Below, piece by piece: positions 37,021 through 64,000 of a stretch of 64,000 nucleotides of DNA. The notes under the pieces are model-generated. The model worked only from the letters and a program-made list of their open reading frames with translations, made no database searches and was not told the origin of the DNA. The translations under genes and the position numbers were made by a program. The DNA is taken from positions 361,398,001 to 361,462,000 of the forward strand of contig OZ024742.1 of the NCBI GenBank assembly GCA_964016885.1, written 5' to 3'. The DNA comes from Eledone cirrhosa. Lineage: Eukaryota. How positions within the stretch are numbered: position 1 is the stretch's first letter; each line of letters opens with the position of its first letter.

Positions 37021-37794
37021 ATATATATATACACTGGCATTAAATAAAACCTGAGGATATGTAAAAGTTTCAGCATTATTTGTATGATTAAATGATAAAT
37101 ATGCATATACTCCACAGAAAGCAACTTAAGTTGCAATCTATAGAAAAATAAGGAATTCATAGTATCTTTTCTAGACATCTCTAATAGAGAAATTAATTAA
37201 AACATTACATTTATACTTGTGTAAACATTTGCTATATGAATAAAATACACCTTTTCTTAATATATCAAAACTAAAACAAAAACTAAACTAAAAAGTAAGC
37301 TAAAAATATACATCAGTGAGAAAGCTTGTTTTAAATTAAGATTTTAAAACTTAAATTGAACACAAAATATCAAACAAAACACAAATAGCAACGTAATAAA
37401 TTTCATTTACAATATTCAACCCTTTTGAAATGTTACCTCAAACCTTTGCTATTTTGATGTTTCATGAGGAATAGGTATTGGAAAGCAGACAAATATCAGA
37501 CAAACAAAATGGCCACAATGATGTAAATGTCTTTTTATAAAGTTCTGTTGAAACACACCCAGCGCTAAAAGCCAACCAAGGAATGGAATTCCTTGTTTGT
37601 ATTTAATGATTGCTTGCCTCATTCAGAATAATTACCATCTACATCTCTCCTTCTAGCCACTTAACCCAATGGAAATATATATGAACAAACCTTTCAAAGA
37701 TTCCTATTGCCATGTTGGGCAAGGGTGGGTTGTAATTACATCAGTTGCAATCTGTATATATGTATTTTCGAGTGAATAACAATAATATAATGAC

Positions 37795-37921
37795 TGTTTC
37801 TACTTTTGGCACAAGGCCAGCAATAACCCAGTGTATTACTGGTACTTTATGTTATCGACCCCGTAAGGATGAAAGGCAAAGTTAACCTCGGCGGGATTTG
37901 AACTCAGACCATAAAGGGCCG
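37795..37921 (-). mobile_element. 5'-truncated tRNA-derived SINE, inverted partner of the copy at 37973-38165
   Basis: Reverse complement of 38035-38158 (gagttcaaatcccgccgagg...gctggccttgtgccaaaagtagaaaca). Confidence 0.85.
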
Positions 37922-37972
37922 TATGGTCTGAGTTCAAATAATATTATATTATAATATTATTAATAATATTAT

Positions 37973-38165
37973 AGGGCGGTGGATTTGCAGTATCGGTAGA
38001 GGGTCAGACACCATGCTTTCCAGCAAAGTTACGTCCCTTTACGATCTGAGTTCAAATCCCGCCGAGGTTGACTTTGCCTTTCATCTTTACGGGGTCGATA
38101 AAATAAAGTACCAGTAATGCACTGGGTAATTGCTGGCCTTGTGCCAAAAGTAGAAACAATTATTA
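37973..38165 (+). mobile_element. tRNA-derived SINE (second family), near full length
   Basis: Head ggcggtggatttgcagtatcggtagag, B-box gagttcaaatccc, tail gtagaaac(att)n. Homologues at 47262, 47451 and 48245. Confidence 0.85.
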
Positions 38166-38389: not shown

Positions 38390-38562
38390 TTTGGCTTGGT
38401 TTCTACGGCTGGATGACTTTAACAATGCCACCCATATTTTCGTTGTGACACCTACGTGACGAGTTTATAGTGTGGACTTGGTGCTGTTGTTGTATTGCCA
38501 ACATGGCCAATCTCCAGTGTGGATTGGGTGCTTTTTATTCTGACACCTATACGACCACTTTA
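38390..38562 (-). mobile_element. SINE/RTE 3'-tail fragments containing one dispersed copy of the 48-bp satellite monomer
   Basis: Minus strand reads gtaaagtggtcgtataggtgtcagaataaaaagcacccaatccacactg and catccagccgtagaaacc. Confidence 0.7.
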
Positions 38563-38575
38563 CATATACATATGC

Positions 38576-39123: not shown

Positions 39124-40039
39124 TAGGAAAGCAATGTTCAATTGGTCAGTGTGCAGAAATAAAATAATATTTATTTAGGTTCATAAATAGAACAAAATTG
39201 CTGCCTAGCATTTCAAGACCAAATATTGACCAATCTCCAAAATGTAAGAGGGATCAAATTTGTGACCTATCTATCTTCTTCCATTTATGAACATAAATAA
39301 ATAGAGTATATATATATATATATATAGAAAGATTTGAATGGATACAGTTTAGTTGAAAGGAATTTATTGACACGTGTTTCTATAACAGTTACATAACCTA
39401 AAACAGCTGCTATCTACAAACTTTTAGTTATGCAGACATTAAATATTTCAATGTTATTATTTACTGTCATTTCATCAGAGTAATATTACTGAGGACCTAT
39501 TTAGTTTTTATAGAGAATATTAGGAGGGAGGGGTGAAGTTGTCAGAAGAATAGTTCAAGGAGTGGTTTTTCAATAGCAGTGAGAATTCTTGGTGGCAGTG
39601 AGTAATTAGATTCCCATCTGTTGTTTTGACATTTTTTATAGAATATATTATTGGTTATTTTTCTAAATCTATAGAAGGATTAGACATAGTAAAGATATGC
39701 GTGGTTGGTTTTGTGTTTGCACTTAATTAACATTCAGACTTAAATTTTTCTTTCTAGTGTACGTATCCTTTCACCCACGCATTCACACACAAATATATTT
39801 GCACACCTCTACAAAATACATATACTCACAATTCACATATTCATACTTACATATATATACACATGCATACACATATATATACACACATGTATTCATGTAT
39901 ATACATACGCGCTCATGTGTATACATTTTCATACTCAACTTATCTTTATATACACACGTATAGACACACACATATATACATACATACTCTAGTCCATGTG
40001 TACACACATACACATACATACACATCCATATACACATAT

Positions 40040-40072
<33 letters not shown>

Positions 40073-40527
40073 AGCACTTTAATACATGAATACACTTACA
40101 TCTAACTATACACATCAAACATATATATATATTTACTTATTTATATACATTTTCACATATATATACATACTTATGGACGTTTTTAGACACATTCATTATC
40201 GCATATTTGCACCTATTCTCATCAGCATATCTTTCCATTATTAGTGTGGTAATTTAAGGTTATTAATATATGTTGAGAAGAGATTGTTTTTATATTTTTC
40301 TAACTAGATTAAGGTTTATATAGTTGGGGGATGTCCCTCTTTTATGTAATATTCGGCTTGTAGTGGGAAAAAAGGGTTTTAGTTCTGTGACGGCAGAATA
40401 ATGTTCGTTCAATTCTGTTATTCACCAGTTTCTTCTTGTGTGTGATTATGTAATAAATCTCAAGATTACACAATTTGCAGAAATTTTGGCTCCTGGAAAA
40501 GCTTTGGGTTTTAGCTAATTTCCAGAA

Positions 40528-40758
40528 AAAGCTTGGACGCTCAGGGATAGCGATCAAAAGTTTACCCTAAAATGGGAGAAATTAGCTAAAACCCAAAGCT
40601 TTTCCAGGAGCCAAAATTTCTGCAAATTGTGTAATCTTGAGATTTATTACATAATCACACACAAGAAGAAACTGGTGAATAACAGAATTGAACGAACATT
40701 ATTCTGCCGTCACAGAACTAAAACCCTTTTTTCCCACTACAAGCCGAATATTACATAA
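40528..40758 (+). pseudogene. C-terminal fragment of a Penelope-like GIY-YIG endonuclease (CxLC...N.R.E...CRH type); a shorter mirror copy lies at 40342-40520 on the minus strand
   Basis: Translates as KAWTLRDSDQKFTLKWEKLAKTQSFSRSQNFCKLCNLEIYYIITHKKKLVNNRIERTLFCRHRTKTLFSHYKPNIT*. This fits the recalled PLE pattern W.LK.....IKW.I.......CNLCL.EK..I.....LN.R.E....CRH..K.LL. It is absent from the ORF track on + because it has no start codon. Confidence 0.8.
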
Positions 40759-40870
40759 AAGAGGGACATCCCCCAACTATATAAACCTTAATCTAGTTAG
40801 AAAAATATAAAAACAATCTCTTCTCAACATATATTAATAACCTTAAATGACCACACTAATAATGGAAAGA

Positions 40871-40928
40871 TATGCTGATGAGAATAGGTGCAAATATGCG
40901 ATAATGAATGTGTCTAAAAACGTCCATA
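40871..40928 (+). ncRNA. Candidate degenerate minimal type I hammerhead (mirror copy 40172-40229, minus strand)
   Basis: tatg-CTGATGA-gaa-taggtgca...tgtgtcta-AAAAC-GTC-cata. Stem I (tatg/cata) is intact, but the G12 position is A and the stem II register is imperfect. Confidence 0.4.
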
Positions 40929-41025
40929 AGTATCTATATATATGTGAAAATGTATATAAATAAGTAAATATATATATATGTTTGATGTGTATAGTTAGAT
41001 GTAAGTGTATTCATGTATTAAAGTG

Positions 41026-41082
<57 letters not shown>

Positions 41083-41632
41083 ATATGTGTATATGGATGT
41101 GTATGTATGTGTGTACACATGGACTAGAGTATGTATGTATATATGTGTGTGTCTATACGTGTGTATATAAAGATAAGTTGAGTATGAAAATGTATACACA
41201 TGAGTGCGTATGTATGTACATGAATACATGTGTGTATATATATGTGTATGCATGTGTATATATATGTAAGTATGAATATGTGAATTGTGAGTATATGTAT
41301 TTTGTAGAGGTGTGCAAATATATTTGTGTGTGAATGCGTGGGTGAAAGGATACGTACACTTGAAAGAAAAATTTAAGTCTGAATGTTAATTAAGTGCAAA
41401 CACAAAACCAACCACGCATATCTTTACTATCTCTAATCCTTCTATAGATTTAGAAAAATAACCAATAATATATTCTATAAAAAATGTCAAAACAACAGAT
41501 GGGAATCTAATTACTCACTGCCACCAAGAATTCTCACTGCTATCGAAAAACCACTCCTTCAACTATTCTTCTGACAACTTCACCCCTCCCTCCTAATATT
41601 CTCTATAAAAACTAAATAGGTCCTCAGTAATA

Positions 41633-41752
41633 TTACTCTGATGAAATGACAGTAAATAATAACATTGAAATATTGAATGTCTGCATAACTAAAAGTTTGT
41701 AGATAGCAGCTGTTTTAGGTTATGTAACTGTTATAGAAACACGTGTCAATAA
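41633..41752 (+). ncRNA. Candidate type I hammerhead ribozyme with extended stem II, slightly degenerate (mirror copy 39364-39483, minus strand)
   Basis: ttact-CTGATGA(41638)-a-atgacagt...~80 nt...actgttat-a-GAAAC-ACGT-GTC(41747)-aataa. Stem II has 8 bp, loop III is palindromic, and stem I (ttact/aataa) has one mismatch. Confidence 0.55.
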
Positions 41753-41899
41753 ATTCCTTTCAACTAAACTGTATCCATTCAAATCTTTCTATTTTTCTCC
41801 GGATTACTTTTGGAACTACAACTGGAACCGTCGAGCAAACTCTACGTGAGCTGATAATCTACTGTGTGTAATATTTATATTACAACACAACGGAAAATA

Positions 41900-41950
<51 letters not shown>

Positions 41951-42283: not shown

Positions 42284-43531
42284 ACCCCTATACTTAGCTT
42301 TTGTTGACTTGGAGAAAGCCTTTGACAGAGTCCCACACTCCATTATCTGGTGGGCTCTTAGAAAACGAGGTGATGATGAATGGCTTGTGAGAGCTATACA
42401 AGCCATGTATAAAGAAACAGTCAGCAAGGTTAGAATTAACAACGAATATAGTGAAGAGTTTAGCGTAAAAGTTGGTGTTCATCAGGGCTCCGTTCTTAGC
42501 CCCCCCTACTATTTATTATTGCCCTTCAGTCTATAACAGAGGAGTTCAAGACCGGCTGCCCATGGGAACTCCTATATGCAGATGATCTAACGTTCATAGC
42601 TGAATCAATGGCTGAACTAGAGAAGAAATTCCAAACATGGAAGCATGGCCTAGAATCAAAAGGCCTTAAAATTAACCTGTCCAAGACTAAAGTTCTTGTT
42701 TGTAGGAAGGAAAATAGGGCACTGGTCCCATCTGAGAAATGGCCATGCTCAGTGTGTAGGAAAGGAGTAAGCTGAAACTCCATTTTATGTCCCAAATGCA
42801 AAGTATGGGTGCATAAAAGATGTAGTGTGATCACAGGTAAGTTAACTAAGAATATAGATTTTATATGTGGCCGGTGGTCTGGTGCAATAAGTAGCAGCAA
42901 ATGCCCAGGGAATACTAGCTCATTCCATTGCACATATGGTTCTATAGAAATCTTGGACACCTTCCGTTACCTGGGTGACAAAATCAGCAGTGGTGGAGGG
43001 TGCTCTGAAAGTACAGTAGCTAGAGTCAGAACAGGGTGGAAAGAGTTCATAGAGCTTATACCACTATTGGCCGCTAAAAGGTTCTCTCTAAAAATGAAAA
43101 GCAGGCTGTATGAACCCTGCATACGAACACCAATGTTACATGGCAGTGAGACCTGGGCATTGTATGAAGAGGAGACGTGCAGACTGGAGAGAAACGAAGC
43201 TTGCATGCTCCGCTGGATGTGTAATAGTAATATACATGAATGGCAAAGCATAAACGAACTAAGGGAGAAATTAGGAATAAGAGGGATCAGATGTTGTTTA
43301 CTCGAGAGAAGACTACGTTGGTACGGTCACGTGATGCTCATGAAAGACGACAGCTGTATAAAAAAGTGCATGGCGATAAAAATAGACGGTAGCCACGGAG
43401 TAGGCAGACCCAGAAAAACCTGGGACGACTTGATAAATTCCAACCTCACACACTTACACCTCTCCAAGAAAATGTCACTGGACCGAGATCTTTGGTGCTT
43501 CACAGTAATACAGAAGACCAGCCTTGCCTAA
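42279..43531 (+). pseudogene. Disrupted reverse transcriptase ORF of the RTE element
   Basis: +1 frameshift in the C7 run at 42500-42506, in-frame TGA at 42773-42775, and no endonuclease or N-terminal RT. Confidence 0.9.
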
Positions 43532-47261: not shown

Positions 47262-47650
47262 AGGGTAGTGGATTGGCAGAATCGGTAGAGCGTCAGACAA
47301 AATACTTTACAGTATAGAGTTGTCGCCTTACGTTTTAAGTTCAAATCCTTATGGGGTTGAGAAAATAAAGTACCAGTAACGCAGTGGGGTGGATTTCTTC
47401 TACTTCTCCCCAAATTGTTGGCCTTGTGCTTAAATGAAAACCATTATTAAAGGGTGGTGGATTGGCAGTATCGGTAGAGGGTTGGACGCCATGCTTTGAT
47501 GCACAGAGTTATGGTCCTTGCCATTCTGAGTTCAAATCCCACCGAGGTTAACTTTGCCAGTCATCCTTACGGGTTGATAAAATAAAGTAACAGTAATGCA
47601 CTGGGTATTTGCTGGCCTTGTGCCAAATGTAGAAACAATTATTATTATTG
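47262..47650 (+). mobile_element. Two tandem tRNA-derived SINEs (47262-47448 and 47451-47650)
   Basis: Both begin gggt(a/g)gtggattggcag..tcggtagag, have gttcaaatcc B-boxes and end gccttgtg...(att)n. Same family as 37973. Confidence 0.85.
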
Positions 47651-47829
47651 ATAAAAATATCTGAAGTTCCCAGTACTAGTATTTAGTGAGATATCATAGT
47701 GAGACCTTTAATACTGGGTAAATAAAAGCCATTAATGTTTTGTTTGTTATTTAAATCCTGGTCAACCCTAATCAAGCAAACATATGCACAATGGTATTGT
47801 AGCCATAATCTTCCCACACTTTATGTAGA

Positions 47830-48934: not shown

Positions 48935-49429
48935 TCAATGTTGCCTCTCTCCATAAACTTTGCTGGCCTTGAGCCTTAATGAAAAACTATTCTACATTCA
49001 CTCGGGGCAAACTTCTGTCACACAAAATCTATTTACAAAACATTAGATTTTTACATGAACTGATTAATAAAAATCTCAGACAACATTGAATGAAGGTCTA
49101 TGTTATCTAATGTGTTCTCATCTGTATTGAAACAGCATATGAATTGAATGGGATTTTTATGCTATTTCTAGCAGGTCAGGTAACTATCTAGATATTTTCC
49201 CAATGGCGTATTTATATTTTTCAGTAGTGTTTGTAATGAATTGATCTATGCAGGGGTTTTTATAAGAGAGCTCAGTGTTGGTTGTATTGAATCAACTAAA
49301 TTATGAAAGGACACATGACAATCTGCTGGAATAAATAAAGGTCTATAATGATTGCAAGAACATTCATTTCCATTTGCTGTTATAAACACAATAGAGTAGT
49401 ATTTGTAGTGACACACAGAAACATTGATA

Positions 49430-52400
49430 TGTAAAGTGGTTATGTAGTTATCACAACAAAAAGCACCCAGTACACAGTGTAAAGTGATTATGTAGGTATC
49501 ACAACAAAAAGCATCCAGTACACACTGTAAAGTGGTCGTGTAAGTGTCACAACAAAAGGCACCCAATACAGATATAAAGTGGTCGGTAAGTGTTACAACA
49601 AAAGGCACCCAATACACACTGTAAAGTGGTCATGTAAGTGTTATGTGGTCATGTAGGTGTTACAATAAATGGCACCCAATACACGCTGTAAAGTGGTCGT
49701 GTAAGTGTTACAACAAAAGGCACCCAATACAAACTGAAAAGTGGTCATGCAGGTGTTACAACAAAAGGCACCCAATACACGCTGTAAAGTGGTCGTGTAA
49801 GTGTTACAACAAAAGGCACACAATACACACTGTAAAGTGGTCATGTAGGTGTTACAACAAAAGGCACCCAATACATGCTGTAAAGTGGTCGTGTAAGTGT
49901 TACAACAAAAGGCACACAATACACACTGTAAAGTGGTCATGTAAGTGTTAAGTGGTCATGTAGGTGTTACAACAAAAGGCACCCAATACACGCTGTAAAG
50001 TGATTATGTAGGTGTTACAACAAAAGGCACACAATACACACTGTAAAGTGATTATGTAGGTATCACAGTAAAAAGCACCCAGTACACACTGTAAAGTGAT
50101 TATGTCGGTATCACAGCAAAAAGCACCCAGTACACACTGTAAAGTGTTTGTGTAGGTATCACAGCAAAAAGCACCCAGTACACACTGTAAAGTGATTATG
50201 TAGGTATCACAGCAAAAAGCACCCAGTACACACTGTAAAGTGATTATGTCGGTATCACAGCAAAAAGCACCCAGTACACACTGTAAAGTGTTTGTGTAGG
50301 TATCACAGCAAAAAGCACCCAGTACACACTGTAAAGTGATTATGTCGGAATCACAGCAAAAAGCACCCAGTACACACTGTAAAGTGTTTGTGTAGGTATC
50401 ACAGTAAAAAGCACCCAGTACACACTGTAAAGTGATTATGTCGGTATCACAGTAAAAAGCACCCAGTACACACTGTAAAGTGTTTGTGTAGGTATCACAG
50501 CAAAAAGCACCCAGTACACACTGTAAAGTGATTATTTCGGTATCACAGTAAAAAGCACCCAGTACACACTGTAAAGTGTTTGTGTAGGTATCACAGTAAA
50601 AAGCACCCAGTACACACTGTAAAGTGATTATGTCGGTATCACAGCAAAAAGCACCCAGTACACACTGTAAAGTGTTTGTGTAGGTATCACAGCAAAAAGC
50701 ACCCAGTACACACTGTAAAGTGATTATGTAGGTATCACAGCAAAAAGCACCCAGTACACACTGTAAAGTGATTATGTCGGTATCACAGCAAAAAGCACCC
50801 AGTACACACTGTAAAGTGTTTGTGTAGGTATCACAGCAAAAAGCACCCAGTACACACTGTAAAGTGATTATGTCGGAATCACAGCAAAAAGCACCCAGTA
50901 CACACTGTAAAGTGTTTGTGTAGGTATCACAGTAAAAAGCACCCAGTACACACTGTAAAGTGATTATGTCGGTATCACAGTAAAAAGCACCCAGTACACA
51001 CTGTAAAGTGTTTGTGTAGGTATCACAGCAAAAAGCACCCAGTACACACTGTAAAGTGGTCGTGTAGGTATCACAGCAAAAAGCACCCAGTACACACTGT
51101 AAAGTCGTTGTGTCGGTATCACAGCAAAAAGCACCCAGTACACACTGTAAAGTGTATGTGTAGGTATCACAGCAAAAAGCACCCAATACGCACTGTAAAG
51201 TGTTTGTGTTGGTATCACAGCAAAAAGCACCCAGTACACACTGCAAAGTGGTTGTGTAGGTATCACAGCAAAAAGCACCCAGTACACACTGTAAAGTCGT
51301 TGTGTAGGTATCACAGCAAAAAGCACCCAGTACACACTGTAAAGTAATTATGTAGGTATCACAGCAAAAAGCACCCAATACACACTGTAAAATTGTCAGG
51401 TAAGTGTAACAACAAAAGGCACCCGATACACACAGTAAAGTGGTCATGTAGTTGTTACAACAAAAGGCACCCAATACACGATGTAAAGTGGTCGTGTAAG
51501 TGTTACAACAAGAGGCACCCAATACACTCAGTAAAGTGGTCATGTAGGTGTTACAACAAAAGGCACCCAATACACGCTGTAAAGTGGTCGTGTAAGTGTT
51601 ACAACAAAAGGCACCCAATACACACAGTAAAGTGGTCATGTAGGTGTTACAACAAAAAGCACCCAATACACGCTGTAAAGTGGTCGTGTAAGTGTTATAA
51701 CGAAACGCACCCAATACACACTGTAAATGGGTCATGTAGGTGTTACAACAAAAGGCACCCAATACAGACTGTAAAGTGGTCGTCTAGGTGTTACAACAAA
51801 AGGCACCCAATACACGCTGTAAAGTGGTCGTGTAAGTGTTATAACGAAACGCACCCAATACACACTGTAAATGGGTCATGTAGGTGTTACAACAAAAGGC
51901 ACCCAATACAGACTGTAAAGTGGTCGTCTAGGTGTTACAACAAAAGTCACCCAATACGCACTGAAGTGGTCATGTAACTGTTACAACAAAAGGCACACAA
52001 TACACACTGTAAAGTGGTCATGTAGGTGTTACAACAAAAGGCACCCAATACAAACTGTAAAGAGGTCATGTAAGTGTTATAACGAATTGATTATGTAAGT
52101 ATCACAACAAAAATCATCCAGTACACACTGTAAAGTGGTCGTGTAAGTGTCACAACAAAAGGCACCCAGTACACACTGTAAAGTGGTCGTGTAAGTGTCA
52201 CAACAAAAGGCATCCAATACACACTGTAAAGTGGCCGTGTAGGTGTTACAACAAAAGGCATCCAATACACGCTGTAAAGTGGTCGTGTAGGTGTTACAAC
52301 AAAAGGCATCCAATACACGCTGTGAAGTGGTAATGTAGGTGTTACAACAAAAGGCATCCAATACACACTGTAAAGTGGTAATGTAAGTGTCATAATGAAA

Positions 52401-55400
52401 TACACCCAATACACACTGTAAAGTGGTCATGTAGGTGTTACAACAAAAGGCACCCAATACACACTGTAAAGTGGTCATGTAAGTGTCACAACAAAAGGCA
52501 CCCAATACACACTGTAAAGTGGTCATATAGGTGTTACAACAAAAGGCACCCAATACACACTGTAAAGTGGTCGTGTAAGTGTTATAACGAAATGCACCCA
52601 ATACACACTGTAAATTGGTCATGTAAGTGTCACAACAAAAGGCACCCAGTACACACTGTAAAGTGATTATGTAGGTATCACACCAAAAAGCATCCCTTAC
52701 ACACTTTAAATTGATTATGTAAGTATCAAAAGGCACCCAATACACACTGTAAAGTGGTCGTGTAAGTGTCACAACAAAAGGCAGCCAATACACACTGTAA
52801 AATGGTCATGTAAGTCTAACTAGAAAAGGCACCCAATACAAGCTGTAAAGTGGTCGTGTCATTGACACAACAAAAGCAACCACTACACACTGTAAAGTGA
52901 ATGTGTAGGTGTTACAACAAAAGGCACCCAATACACACTGTAAAGTGGTCGGGTAGGTGTTACAACAAAAGGCACCCAATACATGCTGTTAAGTGGTCGT
53001 GTAAGTGTTACAACAAAAGGCCCCCAATACACACTGTAAGGTGGTCATGTAGGTGTTACAACAAAAGGCACCCAATACACACTGTGAAGAGGTCGTGTAA
53101 GTGTTACAACAAAAGGCACCCAATACACACTGTAAAGTTGTTGTGTAGGTATCACAGCAAAAAGCACCCAATACACACAGTAAAGTGCTCATGTAGATGT
53201 TACAACAAAAGGCACCCAATACACACTGTGACGAGGTCGTGTAAGTGTTACAACAAAAGGCACCCAATACACACTGTAAAGTGGTTGTGTAGGTATCACA
53301 GCAACAAGCATACAGTACACACTGTAATGTGGTTGTGTAGGTATCACAGCAAAAAGCACCCAGTACACACTGTAATGTGGTTGTGTAGGTATCACAGCAA
53401 AAAGCACGCAGCACTCTCTGTAAAGTGACTGTGTAGGTATCACAGCAAAAAGGACCCAGTACTCACTTTAAAGTGGTTGTGTAAGTATCACAACAAAAAG
53501 CACCCCTTACACACTGTAACGTGATTATGTAGCTATCACATCAAAAAGTACCCAGTACACACTGTAAAGTGATTATGTAGGTATCACACCAAAAAGCATC
53601 CAGTACACACTGTAAAGTGGTTGTTGAAGTGTCACAACAAAAGGTACCCAATACACACTGTAAAGTGGTCGTGTCAATGACACCACAAAAGACACGCATT
53701 ACACACTGTAAAGTGTTTATGCCGGTGTTACAACACAAGGCACCCAATACACATTGTCAAGTGGTCGTGTAGGTGTTACAACACAAGGCACCCAATACAC
53801 GCTGTAAAGTGGTCATGTAGGTGTTACAACACAAGGCACCCAATACACAATGTTAAATGGTCGTGTAGGTCTTACAACAAAAGGCACCCAATACACGCTG
53901 TAAAGTGGTCACGTAACTGTTACAACAAAAGGCACCCAATACACACTGTAAAGTGGTCGTGTAGGTGTTACAACAAAAGGCACTCAATACACAATGTAAA
54001 GTGGTCATGTAGGTGTTACAACAAAGGGCACCCAATACACACTGTAACCTTGTCATGTAAGTGTTACAACAAAAGGCACCCAATACTCACTGTAAAGTGG
54101 TCATGTAGGTGTTACCACAAAATGCACCCAATACACACTGTAAAGTGTTCATGTAAATGTTACAACAAAAGGCACCCAGTACACACTGTAAAGTGGTTGT
54201 GTAGGTATCACAGCAAAAAGCACACAGTACACACTGTAACGTGATTATGTAGGTATCTCAGCAAAAAGCACCCAGTACACACTGTAAAGTGATTATGTAG
54301 GTACCCCAGCAAAAAGGACCTAGTACACACTGTCTAATGATTATGTAGGTATCACAGCAAAAAGCAGCCAGTACACACTGTAAAGTGATTATGTAGGTAT
54401 CACACCAAAATGCACCCAATACAATCTGTAATATGGTCGTGTCAGTGACACCACAAAAGACACCCAATACACACTGTAAAGTGGTCATGTAGGTGTTACA
54501 ACACAAGGTACCCAATACACACTGTTAAGTGGTCATGTAACTGTTACAACAAAAGTCACCCAAAACACACTGTAAAGTGGTCCTGTAGGTGTTACAACAA
54601 AAGGCACCCAATACACACTGTAAAGTGGTCATGTAAGTGTTACAACAAAAGGCACCCAATACACACTGTAAAGTGGTCATGTAAGTGTTACAACAAAAGG
54701 CACCAAATACTCACTATAAAGTGGTCGTGTAAGTGTTACAACAAAAGGCACCCAATACATACTGTAAAGTGGTCATGTAAGTGTTACAACAAAAGGCACC
54801 CAATACAAACTGTAAAGTGGTCATGTAAGTGTTACAACAAAAGGCACCCAATACAAACTGTAAAGTGGTCATGTAACTGTTCCAACAAAAGGCACCCAAT
54901 ACAAACTGTAAAGTGGTCATGTAAGTGTTACAACAAAAGGCACCCAATACAAACTGTAAAGTGGTCATGTAAGTGTTACAACAAAAGGCACCCAATACGC
55001 ACCGAAGTGGTCATGTAACTGTTACAACAAAAGGCACCCAATACACACTGTAAAGTGGTCATGTAGGTGTTACAACAAAAGGCACCCAATACAAACTGTA
55101 AAGTGGTCACGTAACTGTTACGACAAAAGGCACCCAATACAAACTGTAAAGTGGTCATGTAAGTGTTACAACAAAAGGCACCCAATACACACTGTAAAGT
55201 GGTCATGTAACTGTTACGACAAAAGGCACCCAATACAAACTGTAAAGTGGTCATGTAAGTGTTACAACAAAAGGCACCCAATACACACTGTAAAGTGGTC
55301 ATGTAGGTGTAACAACAAAAGGCACCCAATACTCACTGTAAAGTGATCATGTAAGTGTTACAACAAAAGGCACCCAATACAAACTGTAAAGTGGTCATGT

Positions 55401-58400
55401 AACTGTTACAACAAAAGGCACCCAATACACACTGTAAAGTGGTCATGTAAATGTTACGACAAAAGGCACCCAATACAAACTGTAAAGTGGTCATGTAAGT
55501 GTTACAACAAAAGGCACCCAATACACACTGTAAAGTGGTCATGTAGGTGTTACAACAAAAGGCACCCAATACTCACTGTAAAGTGATCATGTAAGTGTTA
55601 CAACAAAAGGCACCCAATACAAACTGTAAAGTGGTCATGTAACTGTTACAACAAAAGGCACCCAATACACACTGTAAAGTGGTCATGTAAGTGTTACAAC
55701 AAAAGGCACCCAATACTCACTGTAAAGTGGTCATGTAGGTGTTACAACAAAAGGCACCCAATACACACTGTAAAGTGGTCATGTAGGTGTTACAACAAAA
55801 GGCACCCAATACTCACTGTAAAGTGCTCATGTAGGTGTTACAACAAAAGGCACCTAATACACACTGTAAAGTAGTCATGTAGGTGTTACAACAAAAGGCA
55901 CCCAATACACACTGTAAAGTGGTTATGTAGGTGTTACAACAAAAGGCACCCAATACGCACTGAAGTGGTCATGTAACTGTTACAACAAAAGGCACCCAAT
56001 ACACACTGTAAAGTGGTCATGTAGGTGTTACAACAAAAGGCACCCAATACAAACTGTAAAGTGGTCATGTAAGGGTTACAACAAAAGGCACCCAATACAC
56101 ACTGTAAAGTGGTCATGTAAGTGTTACAACAAAAGGCACCCAATACGCACTGAAGTGGTCATGTAACTGTTACAACAAAAGGCACCCAATACTCACTGTA
56201 AAGTGGTCATGTAACTGTTACAACAAAAGGCACCCAATACGCACTGAAGTGGTCATGTAAGTGTTACAACAAAAGCCACCCAATACACACTGTAAAGTGG
56301 TCATGTAAGTGTTACAACAAAAGACACCCAATACACACTGTAAAGTAGTCATGTAAGTGTTACAACAAAAGGCACCCAATACACACTGTAAAGTGGTCAT
56401 ATAAGTGTTACAACAAAAGGCACAGAATACACACTGTAAAGTGGTCATGTAGGCGTTACAACAAAAGGCACCCAATACACATTGTAAAGTGGTCATGTAA
56501 GTGTTACAACAAAAGGCACCCAATACACACTGTAAAGTGGTCGTGTAAGTGTTACAACAAAAGGCACCCAATACACACTGTAAAGTGGTCATATAACTGT
56601 TACAACAAAAGGCACCTAATACAAACTGTAAAGAGGTCATGTAACTGTTACAACAAAAGGCTCCCAATACACACTGTAAAGTGGTCATGTATGTGTTACA
56701 ACAAAAGGCACCCAATACAAACTGTAAAGTGGACATGTAGGTGTTACAACAAAAGGCACCCAATACAATCTGTAAAAGGGTCGTGTCAGTGACACCACAA
56801 AAGACACCCATTACACACTGTAAACTGGTCATGTAGGTGTTACAACACAAGGTACCCAATACACACTGTTAAGTGGTCATATAGGTGTTACAACAAAAGG
56901 CACCCAATACGCACTGAAGTGGTCATGTAGGTGTTAAAACAAAAGGCACCCAATACAAACTGTAAAGTGGTCATGTAAGTGTTACAACAAAAGGCACCCA
57001 ATACTCACTGTAAAGTGATCATGTATGTGTTACAACAAAAGGCACCCTATAGACACTGTAAAGTGGTCATGTAGGTGTTACAACAAAAGGCACCCAATAC
57101 ACACTGTAAAGTGGTCATGTAACTGTTACAACAAAAGGCACCCAATACACACTGTAAAGTGGTCATGTAACTGTTACAACAAAAGGCACCCAATACACAC
57201 TGTAAAATGGTCATGTAGGTGTCACAACAAAAGGCACCCAATACACACTGTAAAGTGGTCATGTAGATGTTACAACAAAAGACACCCAATACACACTGTA
57301 AAGTGGTCATGTAGGTTTTATTACAAAAGGCACCCAATACACACTGTAAAGTGGTCATGTAAGTGTTACAACAAAAGTCACCCAATACACACTGTAAAGT
57401 GGTCATGTAGGTGTTACAAAAAAAGGCACCCAATACGCACTGAAGTGGTCATGTAACTGTTACAACAAAAGGCACTCAATACACACTGTAAAGTGGTCAT
57501 GTAACTGTTACAACAAAAGTCATCCAATACACACTGTAAAGTGGTCATGTAGGTGTTACAACAAAAGGCACCCAATACACACTGTAAAGTGGTCATGTAA
57601 GTGTTACAACAAAAGGCACCCAATACACACTGTAAAGTGGTCTTGTAGGTATTACAACAAAAGGCACCCAATACACACTGTAAAGTGGTCATGTAAGTGT
57701 TACAACAAAAGGCACCCAATACGCACTGTAAAGTGGTCATGTAGGTGTTACAACAAAAGGCACCCAATACGCACTGAAGTGGTCATGTAACTGTTACAAC
57801 AAAATGCACCCAATACACACTGTAAAGTGGTCATGTAGGTGTTACAACAAAAGGCACCCAATACAAACTGTAAAGTGGTCATGTAAGTGTTACAACAAAA
57901 CGCACCCAATACACACTGTAAAGTGGTCATGTAAGTGTTACAACAAAAGGCACCCAATACACACTGTAAAGTGGTCATGTAGGTGTTACAACAAAAGGCA
58001 CCCAATACACACTGTAAAGTGGTCATGTAAGTGTTACAACAAAAGGCACCCAATACACACTGTAAAGTGATCATGTAACTGTTACAACAAAAGGCACCCA
58101 ATACAAACTGTAAAGTGGTCATGTAGGTGTTACAACAAAAGGCACCCAATACACATTGTAAAGTCGTCATGTAGGTGTTACAACAAAAGGCACCCAATAC
58201 GCACTGAAGTGGTCATGTAACTGTTACAACAAAAGGCACCCAATACACACTGTAAAGTGGTCATGTAGGTGTTACAACAAAAGGCACCCAATACAAACTG
58301 TAAAGTGGTCATGTAAGTGTTACAACAAAACGCACCCAATACACACTGTGAAGTGGTCATGTAAGTGTTACAACAAAAGGCACCCAATACACACTGTAAA

Positions 58401-61400
58401 GTGGTCATGTAGGTGCTACAACAAAAGGCACCCAATACACACTGTAAAGTGGTCATGTAGGTGTTACAACAAAAGGCACCTAATACACACTGTAATGTGG
58501 TCATGTAGGTGTTACAACAAAAGGCACCCAATACACACTGTAAAGTGGTCATGTAACTGTTACAACAAAAGGCACCCAATACGCACTGAAGTGGTCATGT
58601 AGGTGTCACAACAAAAGGCACCCAATACACACTGTAAAATGGTCATGTAAGTGTTACAACAAAAGGCACCCAATACACACTGTAAAGTGGTCATGTAAGT
58701 GTTACAACAAAAGGCACCCAATACACACTGTAAAGTGGTCATGTAAGTGTTACAACAAAAGGCACCCAATACACACTGTAAAGTGGTCATGTAAGTGTTA
58801 CAACAAAAGGCACCCAATACACACTGTAAAGTGGTCATGTAAGTGTTACAACAAAAGGCACCCAATACACACTGTAAAGTGGTCATGTAAGTGTTACAAC
58901 AAAAGGCACCCAATACACACTGTAAAGTGGTCATGTAAGTGTTACAACAAAAGGCACCCAATACACACTGTAAAGTGGTCATGTAAGTGTTACAACAAAA
59001 GGCACCCAATACACACTGTAAAGTGGTCATGTAGGTGTTACAACAAAAGGCACCCAATACTCACTGTAAAGTGGTCTGTAGGTGCTACAACAAAAGGCAC
59101 CCAATACACACTGTAAAGTGGTCATGTAAGTGTTACAACATAAGGCACCCAATACGCACTGAAGTGGTCATGTAACTGTTACAACAAAAGGCACCCAATA
59201 CACACTGTAAAGTGGTCATGTAGGTGTTACAACACAAATCACCCTATACACACTGTAAAGTGGTCATGTAGGTGGTACAACAAAAGGCACCCAATACACA
59301 CTGTAAAGTGGTCATGTAAGTGTTACAACAAAAGACACCCAATACACACTGTAAAGTGGTCATGTAAGTGTTACAACAAAAGGTACCCAATACACACTGT
59401 AAAGTGGTCATGTAAGTGTTACAACAAAAGGCACCCAATACACACTGTAAAGTGGTCATGTAGGTGTTACAACAAAAGGCACCCAATACACATTATAAAG
59501 TGGTCATGTAAGTGTTACAACAAAAGGCACCCAATACACACTGTAAAGTGGTCGTGTAAGTGTTACAACAAAAGGCACCCAATACACACTGTAAAGTGAT
59601 CATATAACTGTTACAACAAAAGCACCCAATACAAACTGTAAAGAGGTCATGTAACTGTTACAACAAAAGGCTCCCAATACACACTGTAAAGTGGTCATGT
59701 ATGTGTTACAACAAAAGGCACCCAATACAAAATGTAAAGTGGTCATGTAGGTTTTACAACAAAAGGCACCCAATACAATCTGTAAAATGGTCGTGTCAGT
59801 GACACCACAAAAGACAACCATTACACATTGTAAAGTGGTCATGTAGGTGTTACAACACAAGGCACCCAATACACACTGTTAAGTGGTCATGTAGGTGTTA
59901 CAACAAAAGGCACCCAATACGCACTGAAGTGGTCATGTAGGTGTTACAACAAAAAACACCCAATACAAACTGTAAAGTGGTCATGTAAGTGTTACAACAA
60001 AAGGCACCCAATACTCACTGTAAAGTGATCATGTAGGTGTTACAACAAAAGGCACCCTATACACACTGTAAAGTGGTCATGTAGGTGTTACAACAAAAGG
60101 CACCCAATACACACTGTAAAGTGGTCATGTAACTGTTACAACAAAAGGCACCCAATACACATTGTAAAGGGGTCATGTAAGTGTTACAACAAAAGGCTCC
60201 CAATACACACTGTAAAGTGGTCGTGTAAGTGTTACAACAAAAGGCACCCAATACACACTGTAAAGTGGTCATATAACTGTTACAACAAAAGGCACCTAAT
60301 ACAAACTGTAAAGAGGTCATGTAACTGTTACAACAAAAGGCTCCCAATACACACTGTAAAGTGGTCATGTATGTGTTACAACAAAAGCCACCCAATACAA
60401 ACTGTAAAGTGGACATGTAGGTGTTACAACAAAAGTCACCCAATACAATCTGTAAAATGGTCGTGTCAGTGACACCACAAAAGACACCCTTTACACACTG
60501 TAAAGTGGTCATGTAGGTGTTAGAACAAAAGGCACCCAATACACACTGTAAAGTGGTCATGTAGGTGTTACAACAAAAGGCACCCAATACACCCTGTAAA
60601 GTGGTCATGTAAGTGTTACAACAAAAGGCACCCAATACTCACTCTAAAGTGGTCATGTAGGTGCTACAACAAAAGGCACCCAATACACACTGTAAAGTGG
60701 TCATGTAAGTGTTACAACAAAAGGCACCCAATACACACTGTAAAGTGGTCATGTAACTGTTACAACAAAAGGCACCCAATATAAACTGTAAAGTGGTCAT
60801 GTAGGTGTTACAACAAAAGGCACCCAATACACACTGTAAAGTGGTCATGTAAGTGTTACAACAAAAGGCACCCAATACACACTGTAAAGTGGTCATGTAA
60901 GTGTTACAACAAAAGGCACCCAATACACACTGTAAAGTGGTCATGTAGGTGTTACAACAAAAGGCACCCAATACTCACTGTAAAGTGGTCTGTAGGTGCT
61001 ACAACAAAAGGCACCCAATACACACTGTAAAGTGGTCATGTAAGTGTTACAACATAAGGCACCCAATACGCACTGAAGTGGTCATGTAACTGTTACAACA
61101 AAAGGCACCCAATACACACTGTAAAGTGGTCATGTAAGTGTTACAACAAAAGGCACCCAATACACACTGTAAAGTGGTCATGTAAGTGTTACAACAAAAG
61201 GCACCCAATACACACTGTAAAGTGGTCATGTAAGTGTTACAACAAAAGGCACCCAATACACACTGTAAAGTGGTCATGTAGGTGTTACAACAAAAGGCAC
61301 CCAATACTCACTGTAAAGTGGTCTGTAGGTGCTACAACAAAAGGCACCCAATACACACTGTAAAGTGGTCATGTAAGTGTTACAACATAAGGCACCCAAT

Positions 61401-64000
61401 ACGCACTGAAGTGGTCATGTAACTGTTACAACAAAAGGCACCCAATACACACTGTAAAGTGGTCATGTAGGTGTTACAACACAAATCACCCTATACACAC
61501 TGTAAAGTGGTCATGTAGGTGGTACAACAAAAGGCACCCAATACACACTGTAAAGTGGTCATGTAAGTGTTACAACAAAAGACACCCAATACACACTGTA
61601 AAGTGGTCATGTAAGTGTTACAACAAAAGGCACCCAATACACACTGTAAAGTGGTCATGTAAGTGTTACAACAAAAGGCACCCAATACACACTGTAAAGT
61701 GGTCATGTAGGTGTTACAACAAAAGGCACCCAATACACATTGTAAAGTGGTCATGTAAGTGTTACAACAAAAGGCACCCAATACACACTGTAAAGTGGTC
61801 GTGTAAGTGTTACAACAAAAGGCACCCAATACACACTGTAAAGTGGTCATATAACTGTTACAACAAAAGGCACCCAATACAAACTGTAAAGAGGTCATGT
61901 AACTGTTACAACAAAAGGCTCCCAATACACACTGTAAAGTGGTCATGTATGTGTTACAACAAAAGGCACCCAATACAAAATGTAAAGTGGTCATGTAGGT
62001 TTTACAACAAAAGGCACCCAATACAATCTGTAAAATGGTCGTGTCAGTGACACCACAAAAGACAACCATTACACATTGTAAAGTGGTCATGTAGGTGTTA
62101 CAACACAAGGCACCCAATACACACTGTTAAGTGGTCATGTAGGTGTTACAACAAAAGGCACCCAATACGCACTGTTAAGTGGTCATGTAAGTGTTACAAC
62201 AAAAGGCACCCAATACTCACTGTAAAGTGATCATGTAGGTGTTACAACAAAAGGCACCCTATACACACTGTAAAGTGGTCATGTAGGTGTTACAACAAAA
62301 GGCACCCAATACACACTGTAAAGTGGTCATGTAACTGTTACAACAAAAGGCACCCAATACACATTGTAAAGTGGTCATGTAAGTGTTACAACAAAAGGCT
62401 CCCAATACACACTGTAAAGTGGTCGTGTAAGTGTTACAACAAAAGGCACCCAATACACACTGTAAAGTGGTCATATAACTGTTACAACAAAAGGCACCTA
62501 ATACAAACTGTAAAGAGGTCATGTAACTGTTACAACAAAAGGCTCCCAATACACACTGTAAAGTGGTCATGTATGTGTTACAACAAAAGCCACCCAATAC
62601 AAACTGTAAAGTGGACATGTAGGTGTTACAACAAATGTCACCCAATACAATCTGTAAAATGGTCGTGTCAGTGACACCACAAAAGACACCCTTTACACAC
62701 TGTAAAGTGGTCATGTAGGTGTTAGAACAAAAGGCACCCAATACACACTGTAAAGTGGTCATGTAGGTGTTACAACAAAAGGCACCCAATACACACTGTA
62801 AAGTGGTCATGTAAGTGTTACAACAAAAGGCACCCAATACTCACTCTAAAGTGGTCATGTAGGTGCTACAACAAAAGGCACCCAATACACACTGTAAAGT
62901 GGTCATGTAAGTGTTACAACAAAAGGCACCCAATACACACTGTAAAGTGGTCATGTAACTGTTACAACAAAAGGCACCCAATATAAACTGTAAAGTGGTC
63001 ATGTAGGTGTTACAACAAAAGGCACCCAATACAAACTGTAAAATGGTCATGTAAGTGTTACAACAAAAGGCACCCAATACACACTGTAAAGTGGTCATGT
63101 AAGTGTTACAACAAAAGGCACCCAATACACACTGTAAAGTGGTCATATAGGTGCTACAACAAAAGGCACCCAATACACACAGTAAAGTGGTCATGTAACT
63201 GTTACAATAAAAGGCACCCAATACACACTGTAAAGTGGTCATGTAGGTGTTACAACAAAAGGCACCCAATACTCACTGTAAAGTGGTATGTAGGTGCTAC
63301 AACAAAAGGCACCCAATACACACTGTAAAGTGGTCATGTAAGTGTTACAACATAAGGCACCCAATACACACTGTAAAGTGGTCATGTAGGTGCTACAACA
63401 AAAGGCACCCAATACACACTGTAAAGTGGTCATGTAACTGTTACAACAAAAGGCACCCAATACACACTGTAAAGTGGTCATGTAGGTGTTACAACAAAAG
63501 GCACCCAATACACACTGTAAAGTGGTCATGTAATTGTTACAACAAAAGGCACCCAATACACACTGTAAAGTGGTCATGTAAGTGTTACAACAAAAGGCAC
63601 CCAATACACACTGTAAAGTGCTCATGTAAGTGTTACAACAAAAGGCACCCAATACACGCTGTAAAGTGGTCATGTAGGTGTTACAACAAAAGGCACCCAA
63701 TACTCACTGTAAAGTGGTCATGTAGGTGCTACAACAAAAGGCACCCAATACACACTGTAAAGTGGTCATGTAACTGTTACAACAAAAGGCACCCAATACA
63801 CACTGTAAAGTGGTCATGTAGGTGTTACAACAAAAGGCACCCAATACACACTGTAAAGTGGTCATGTAACTGTTACAACAAAAGGCACCCAATACACACT
63901 GTAAAGTGGTCATGTAAGTGTTACAACAAAAGGCACCCAATACACACTGTAAAGTGGTCATGTAGGTGTTACAACAAAAGGCACCCAATACACACTGTAA
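49430..64000. repeat. 48-bp tandem satellite array (~300 monomers), runs off the right window edge
   Basis: Consensus gtaaagtggtcatgta(g/a)gtgttacaacaaaaggcacccaatacacact. A variant domain at ~50040-51390 has alternating monomers, and there is a ~2.2-kb duplication in the distal part. Confidence 0.99.

Follow-up and report, generated by a model that had tools for sequence, protein, structure and literature searches.

A type I hammerhead motif with an extended, covarying stem II, likely to act as a dimer, in the terminal repeat of a Hydra-clade Penelope-like element of Eledone cirrhosa

An inverted pair of element copies and its family

The window, by which we mean the whole 64,000-nucleotide stretch of DNA analysed here, lies in a 3.0 Gb genome and contains an inverted repeat (39324-41792) formed by two copies of the same retroelement. 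The hammerhead motif examined below is located in the right arm, which opens with the final 63 codons of a GIY-YIG endonuclease and continues to the family 3' end at +155 from the predicted cut; the left arm carries the same motif on the other strand (Table 1). Much of the surrounding sequence is repetitive, with a satellite array at 1-34000 (53-nt unit, about 630-640 copies, organised in higher-order repeats), a second, A-rich tandem array at ~49400-64000 whose unit lengths are multiples of about 48 nt, and a diverged inverted piece of the latter at 38438-38564. A 136-nt repeat, probably a common SINE or MITE, occurs as an inverted pair at 37788-38165 with more copies near 47450-47660, and a broken reverse transcriptase (RT) fragment to the right of the element (42290-43531) is presumably of the RTE type of LINE.

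Table 1. Positions in the window of the two element copies and of the parts of the hammerhead motif
Feature	Position	Strand	Basis or remark
Hydra-clade element, sense copy, 5'-truncated	40524..41902	+	matches family copies over the whole arm; ORF end, 3' UTR, pseudo-LTR and terminal (TA)n; left end approximate
Inverted partner copy, 5'-truncated	39324..40522	-	3' end is the shorter family end (about +44), followed by (TA)n
Hammerhead on inverted partner, same motif	C3 at 39478, predicted cut after 39369	-	sequence
GIY-YIG endonuclease C-terminal remnant (CxxC ... E ... N ... CxH), stop included	40567..40758	+	translation
TATA-box-like word, 34 nt before core	41604..41611	+	possible promoter, word given without background count
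Stem I, 5' strand	41633..41637	+	C at 41636 a rare mismatch, T in the family
Core C3-A9, CUGAUGA	41638..41644	+	sequence; invariant in five families
Extended stem II, 91 nt, 36 predicted pairs	41645..41735	+	fold
Stem II basal helix, 8 bp	41646-41653/41727-41734	+	sequence, fold
Module, 5' strand: C, bulged A, U, U, G	41663..41667	+	conserved
Module, 3' strand: UAGG	41716..41719	+	20 nt upstream of GAAA in each of the five families
GAAAC-ACGT-GTC: GAAA, 2-bp stem III, palindromic loop	41736..41747	+	sequence
Stem I, 3' strand (41748-41752), overlapping AATAAA word	41748..41753	+	sequence

A 501-nt arm query against the genome returned 803 candidates, and all of the 40 that were scored were near-identical, which points to a young, high-copy family. 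Longer copies encode an RT and an endonuclease, and one of them (locus L038) has a single intact ORF of 773 amino acids in which the RT is followed by a C-terminal GIY-YIG endonuclease. A Pfam scan of this ORF returned 0 families. It contains RWK at residue 37, DKT at residue 121, a CxCX5C linker at 631, and CxxC (729) and CxH (757) around E and N, with the C-terminal CxxC being the only one and with no CCHH. This combination, RWK, DKT, CxCX5C, CxxC and CxH without CCHH, is described as diagnostic of Hydra-clade Penelope-like elements (PLEs; PMC8557442), and from its predicted protein the element is assigned to that clade. Endonuclease queries drew about 58,000-60,000 first-look candidates in the genome, and such elements seem to be very abundant.

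The family inserts into (TA)n and is arranged as tandems and inverted pairs. The tandem loci L038 and L044 each carry two sense motifs, spaced 3536 and 3607 nt apart, one motif per unit, and within the unit the ORF starts 210 nt downstream of the predicted cut. The window locus has no tandem sense pair and follows the family's usual inverted arrangement, with its nearby partner on the opposite strand. The window copy is most likely dead; its activity is unlikely because the ORF is truncated, stem I carries a mismatch (see below), and the sole nearby partner is on the other strand.

Four sister families, B (L037/L046), C, F, and H, share 49-65% endonuclease identity with the window family (A), and the five form one clade (support 100/99) in a 40-row tree restricted to endonuclease regions from loci of this genome and of metagenomes. 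The sister hammerheads are found about 390-500 nt past the ORF end. For a more distant family, E (37% identity), no family hammerhead was found in 17 extended loci, the copies of which are apparently 3'-truncated.

Hammerhead core, loop III and the extended stem II

The hammerhead proposed by the first-pass annotation was recovered at its stated coordinates, with CTGATGA, the basal stem II helix, and GAAAC-ACGT-GTC all in place. Three helices surround the core, which is open at stem I; the core letters (CUGANGA, GAAA, UH) and the 2-bp stem III are invariant across the five families, and stems I and II covary among them. As read from these features, the motif is a type I hammerhead predicted to be self-cleaving, with the cut expected after C41747. 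The stem I that had been proposed, ttact/aataa, pairs at 41633-41637/41748-41752, but on both arms of the inverted repeat it carries a C.A mismatch, where the family has TTATT. Stem I is TTATT, a perfect 5 bp, in 39 of 41 distinct family copies, with TTACT confined to the window and one older copy (L106), and every contig that covers the mismatch site, from three public runs, has a T there. The mismatch makes a perfect 12-nt palindrome of 41626-41637 and the same change occurs in L106, perhaps as a quasi-palindrome correction. An AATAAA word falls no more than 10 nt past the cut in all five families, and a TATAAA-like word lies 34-47 nt upstream of the core in four of the five (35-47 nt in three of the four sisters); a scan with bacterial promoter models, which are not relevant to the host, stayed at chance level.

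The loop III segment at 41739-41746 is an 8-nt self-complement, and the earlier description of a dimer-type PLE type I hammerhead with a palindromic loop III held for this Hydra-clade element. The palindrome is perfect in families A, B, F, and H and imperfect in C, and its centres vary (ACGT, ATAT, AATT, GTAC; three kinds of centre change) while remaining palindromic. The predicted loop III duplex is worth -6.4 to -10.3 kcal/mol in A, B, F, and H versus +2.4 kcal/mol for the monomer hairpin, and only -1.1 kcal/mol in C.

The two halves of the core are separated by 91 nt, which the first-pass annotation had read as an insertion of ~80 nt; the long stem II stands, though what fills it is a folded helix rather than a loose loop, and it is more aptly called an evolved extension of the helix, with covariation. 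Above an A.A mismatch at its foot (41645/41735), the insert folds as a single hairpin with 36 pairs and -26.8 kcal/mol (z, -4.3 to -5.2), a stability reached by 0 of 200 shuffles, while 31 control windows from the same 3' UTRs had a mean z of -0.05 and a minimum of -2.8. In context, the basal stem II pairs of the window family have probabilities of 0.85-1.0. Within the hairpin there is a small module (C-G, bulged A, U.G, U-A, G.U) that is nearly invariant while neighbouring pairs swap. A pseudoknot between its UAGG and a downstream CCU was also considered, and no complement was found at a constant place, with none in family H. An Rfam scan of the window returned 31 matches at E<=5, none of them a hammerhead and all microRNA-like, nearly all on microsatellites; the lack of a hammerhead match is expected with a stem II of 91 nt and agrees with the earlier prediction that such a motif would escape a standard search.

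A further half-core and a second core had also been annotated. The inner GAAA..GTC (41667-41681, + strand) is present but is paired within the hairpin, lacks a stem I, and occurs in the window family only, being absent in all of the sister families (B, C, F, and H); its proximal stem has a pair probability of 0.0000, forcing it costs 12.9 kcal/mol, and a GAAA..GTC within 10 nt turns up in 4.7% of shuffled inserts. Upstream, the supposed second core at 40871-40928 does possess CTGATGA (40875..40924, + strand), but TAAAA replaces GAAA in 38 of 38 distinct copies (GAAA is lacking in 52 of 52 raw matches), and its fold (z, -0.64) is not better than that of shuffles. It is absent from the 3' UTR of the one sister-family copy read, and two copies of an older subfamily are cut off by truncation before the site, which could be a decayed relic. 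Conservation and covariation across copies, the check suggested for both cores, was found for the distal core over five families, while the second core was without GAAA in every copy examined. With the upstream core lacking GAAA in all 38 copies, an excised or circular RNA of ~820 nt has no support, and the spacing that matters is that of the tandem unit, 3536-3607 nt. Nor does the element fit a non-LTR retrozyme, in which short non-coding tandem units with one hammerhead apiece give small circles, as the unit is 3.5 kb and coding and has no second intact core at 820 nt.

Conservation among sister families and long arms elsewhere

The extension is kept by the sister families, with a stem II of 85-90 nt and a predicted hairpin of 28-37 pairs, such that all five families fall within 85-92 nt; the hairpin is clearest in F (z, -4.9) and B (z, -3.0) and is a weak fold in C (z, -1.3). 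When each family was represented by a single row, 89% of the 118 cells of 24 named pairs were paired and 16 of the 24 had two-sided changes, and 0 of 500 shuffles scored as high, with slid controls at 3-7 pairs. RNAalifold on seven rows returned 17 of 28 pairs. These values are read as support for the helix and not as a probability, because they come from a small number of related rows, which also supplied the structure. Conservation over the whole insert is modest (9 invariant columns versus 3.5+-1.9, maximum 9, in 100 shuffles; upstream control stretches had 6 and 3). The UAGG at position -20 from GAAA occurs in 38/40, 53/58, 28/28, 20/20, and 18/19 of the distinct copies of the respective families; it was seen first in four families, and the fifth (H), which was found with a pattern that did not require UAGG, has it too.

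Several features of the families are less favourable to catalysis. The foot of stem II is mismatched in all five (A.A, A.A, A.G, C.A, U.U), which counts against cleavage; a G-C pair is described as the norm at this position with U.U tolerated (PMC3088659), and U.U is common in Hydra motifs (PMC8557442). In all five families a single mismatch precedes the first R-Y pair (R10.1-Y11.1 position), and the published Hydra rows are similar. In B and C the basal stem II has a low predicted probability in a 100-nt context (P<=0.03), and the stem I of B is bulged and weak. In families B and F (L046 and L183), 8 nt of the strand at or beyond the cut site are exactly complementary to the UAGG segment, and the resulting 8-bp pairing, as modelled, would be a possible off state.

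A genome search for a long-arm pattern (72-100 nt between the core halves), which left out the commonest families, gave 355 matches versus 3 in a reversed control. Among the first 100 matches listed, most belong to family H; the remainder are long-armed motifs of other kinds that lack UAGG, many of them having a non-palindromic loop III and mostly no ORF within reach. Two motifs (L098:1205 and L124:1173) have a stem II of 115-116 nt with 44 pairs (z, -8.3) and a palindromic loop III, with no parent ORF found; six diverged motifs (L201, L203, L204, L213, L230, and L236) of about 92-94 nt have a non-palindromic loop III, no UAGG, and no nearby ORF; and L232 and L240 have a stem II of 72-75 nt. 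L232 lies 1086 nt past a Hydra-like ORF that is distant (30% identity) and falls outside the clade of the five families, and long arms may therefore have arisen repeatedly. Many compact hammerhead families, with a stem II of 13-36 nt, also occur in the flanks of genomic loci.

Relatives in marine metagenomes were collected as 80 loci, 70 of which had enough downstream DNA, and a motif was present in 49 of the 70. All 49 had 10-29 nt between the core halves (median, 18), in a scan that allowed 170 nt and with some rows repeating one family; 7 of the 21 misses were inspected and none were long-armed. A published core search (PMC8557442) allowed 7-17 nt between the halves, and a 'long' helix II in PMC13725137 amounts to 6-8 bp. 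PLE hammerheads are already known and their role is unsettled. With search descriptors assuming a short helix II, a clade that keeps one of 85-92 nt shows that such motifs are undercounted, and the five families offer a natural set of variants for testing the binding and activation of a ribozyme by protein.

Proposed action, alternatives and known systems

The reading that we favour, with a probability of roughly 0.6, is that the motif is a type I hammerhead in a Hydra-clade PLE terminal repeat, with a covarying hairpin of ~90 nt as its stem II, and that it likely cuts the element RNA as a dimer. Transcription of a tandem element would begin near stem I, at about the start of one hammerhead, and run just beyond the next, so that one RNA would bear a motif at each end. 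The two motifs would then pair via the 8-nt loop III palindrome, the 2-bp stem III being too weak alone, and cut after GUC, which would yield a unit-length RNA of 3.5 kb, possibly circularised. Release of a unit RNA by two paired hammerheads has been proposed for other PLEs (PMC4209133, PMC6765202), and both dimer action and help from protein have been reported for other PLE hammerheads (PMC4209133, PMC6765202, PMC11167929). Copy ends, in a sample biased by queries that included downstream sequence, fall at the cut site in 0 of 165 cases and cluster 40-55 and 155-195 nt beyond it, which suggests that copies derive from uncut or re-joined RNA.

With less assurance, the bulged-A/UAGG module, fixed in sequence, may be where a protein docks, most probably the RT-endonuclease of the element itself, and docking could stand in for the loop-loop contact that a stem I of 3-5 bp cannot make. 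A further, tentative proposal, about which we are more doubtful than convinced, is a distinct subclass of hammerheads in which helix II is a protein-docking domain of ~90 nt and the module recruits the RT-endonuclease, switching an inactive fold to a cleaving dimer and so coupling RNA processing to reverse transcription. Were this true, such genomes would harbour a large, hidden class of long-armed hammerheads.

A contrary account, a minority prospect in our estimation, grants an active hammerhead and gives its extension no function: stem II would have been lengthened once by fold-back or slippage and kept paired just to hold the core halves, with UAGG an inherited similarity. The other long-armed motifs in the genome (72-116 nt), unrelated in sequence and lacking UAGG at -20, fit this account, as do a whole-insert identity that barely exceeds shuffles and the wide variation of stem II length among the motifs of the genome, from 13 nt upward. 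It does not predict a length held at 85-92 nt in five families that are only 49-65% identical in their endonuclease, nor a module fixed exactly at -20 while the neighbouring pairs swap freely. Alternatively, the fold could serve chiefly as a signal by which the RT-endonuclease binds or packages the RNA, with self-cleavage marginal and dispensable for transposition. The lizard Poseidon element provides a model, as it cuts only with protein, insertion is normal in its catalytic mutants, and no RNA-seq ends are reported at the site (PMC11167929), and both the genomic copies running across the cut site and the competing inactive folds in B, C, and F are in keeping with it. We consider it unlikely, however, because the invariant core letters and stem III, together with the covariation of stem I and loop III across five families, indicate selection on the catalytic fold.

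It is very improbable that the insert is a spliceosomal intron, from GT at 41652 to AG at 41718, the removal of which would leave a compact hammerhead with a stem II of 9-10 bp. The GT and AG are suitably placed in the window family, AG-G is conserved at the 3' place, and in Penelope of Drosophila virilis the hammerhead adjoins the end of an intron (PMC4209133), yet the GT donor is absent in B, C, F, and H and altered in one subfamily, the sisters have no pyrimidine tract, and no intron-less genomic copies were found (0), nor any joints in covering contigs, of unspecified kind, from three public runs. The base after AGG covaries with its pairing partner, for which reason a splice-site reading of UAGG was also rejected. 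Finally, the first-pass model, in which the core switches between two 3' halves and acts with the second core 823 nt upstream to free the ~820-nt RNA, can hardly hold, for although its words are present in the sequence and the upstream site has a 4-bp pairing resembling stem I, the upstream GAAA is missing throughout and the inner half-core neither forms in the predicted ensemble nor recurs in the sisters.

Returning to the proposed dimer-acting hammerhead with an extended stem II, the closest known systems are the PLE hammerheads themselves. Those of the Hydra clade (PMC8557442) share with it the clade, a place near the 3' end, the type I arrangement, an often unpaired or odd stem II foot, a short stem III, and (TA)n targets, but the 26 published rows have a stem II of 3-7 bp with loops of 3-10 nt, as opposed to 85-92 nt, 28-37 pairs, and a module, and the octopus motif Hydra-1_oBim is short-armed and differs from that of the window. 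The minimal, dimer-forming PLE hammerheads (PMC4209133, PMC6765202) have in common with it a short stem I, a weak stem III, a palindromic loop, and an extra base after A9, as well as one motif per pseudo-LTR, with a spacing there of about 3 kb; however, a 'larger than usual' helix II in that group is only 7-8 bp, and G10.1-C11.1 is typical where the first pair here is A-U in four of the five families (PMC4209133). Within the partly covered literature searched, no earlier long-armed PLE hammerhead was found, though a precedent is possible; the longest published PLE case found was PLE-X1_sMoe of a spike moss (PMC8557442), flagged as deviating for its long stem II of 9 bp with a 35-nt loop, which is about half the length of that in the window, belongs to another clade and kingdom, and has no evident module in common.

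Beyond the PLEs, the discontinuous hammerheads of mammalian Clec2 genes (PMC2950038) are natural motifs whose large insertions hide them from ordinary searches, as here, although in the search that found them the insertions are in loop 1 or 3 and in the 3' UTRs of host mRNAs, whereas the motif described here has a continuous helix II and lies in a retroelement. The Poseidon element PAc of the green anole (PMC11167929) is similar in its PLE motif, in the two 3' ends of its genomic copies, where a tail is optional, and in copies made from RNA spanning the cut, and it differs in that its hammerhead is compact and overlaps the start codon and its tail is 30-40 bp, compared with about 110-145 nt here. 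Cleavage in the anole element is protein-dependent and was dispensable in vitro, and the copies of the family described here likewise cross the cut.
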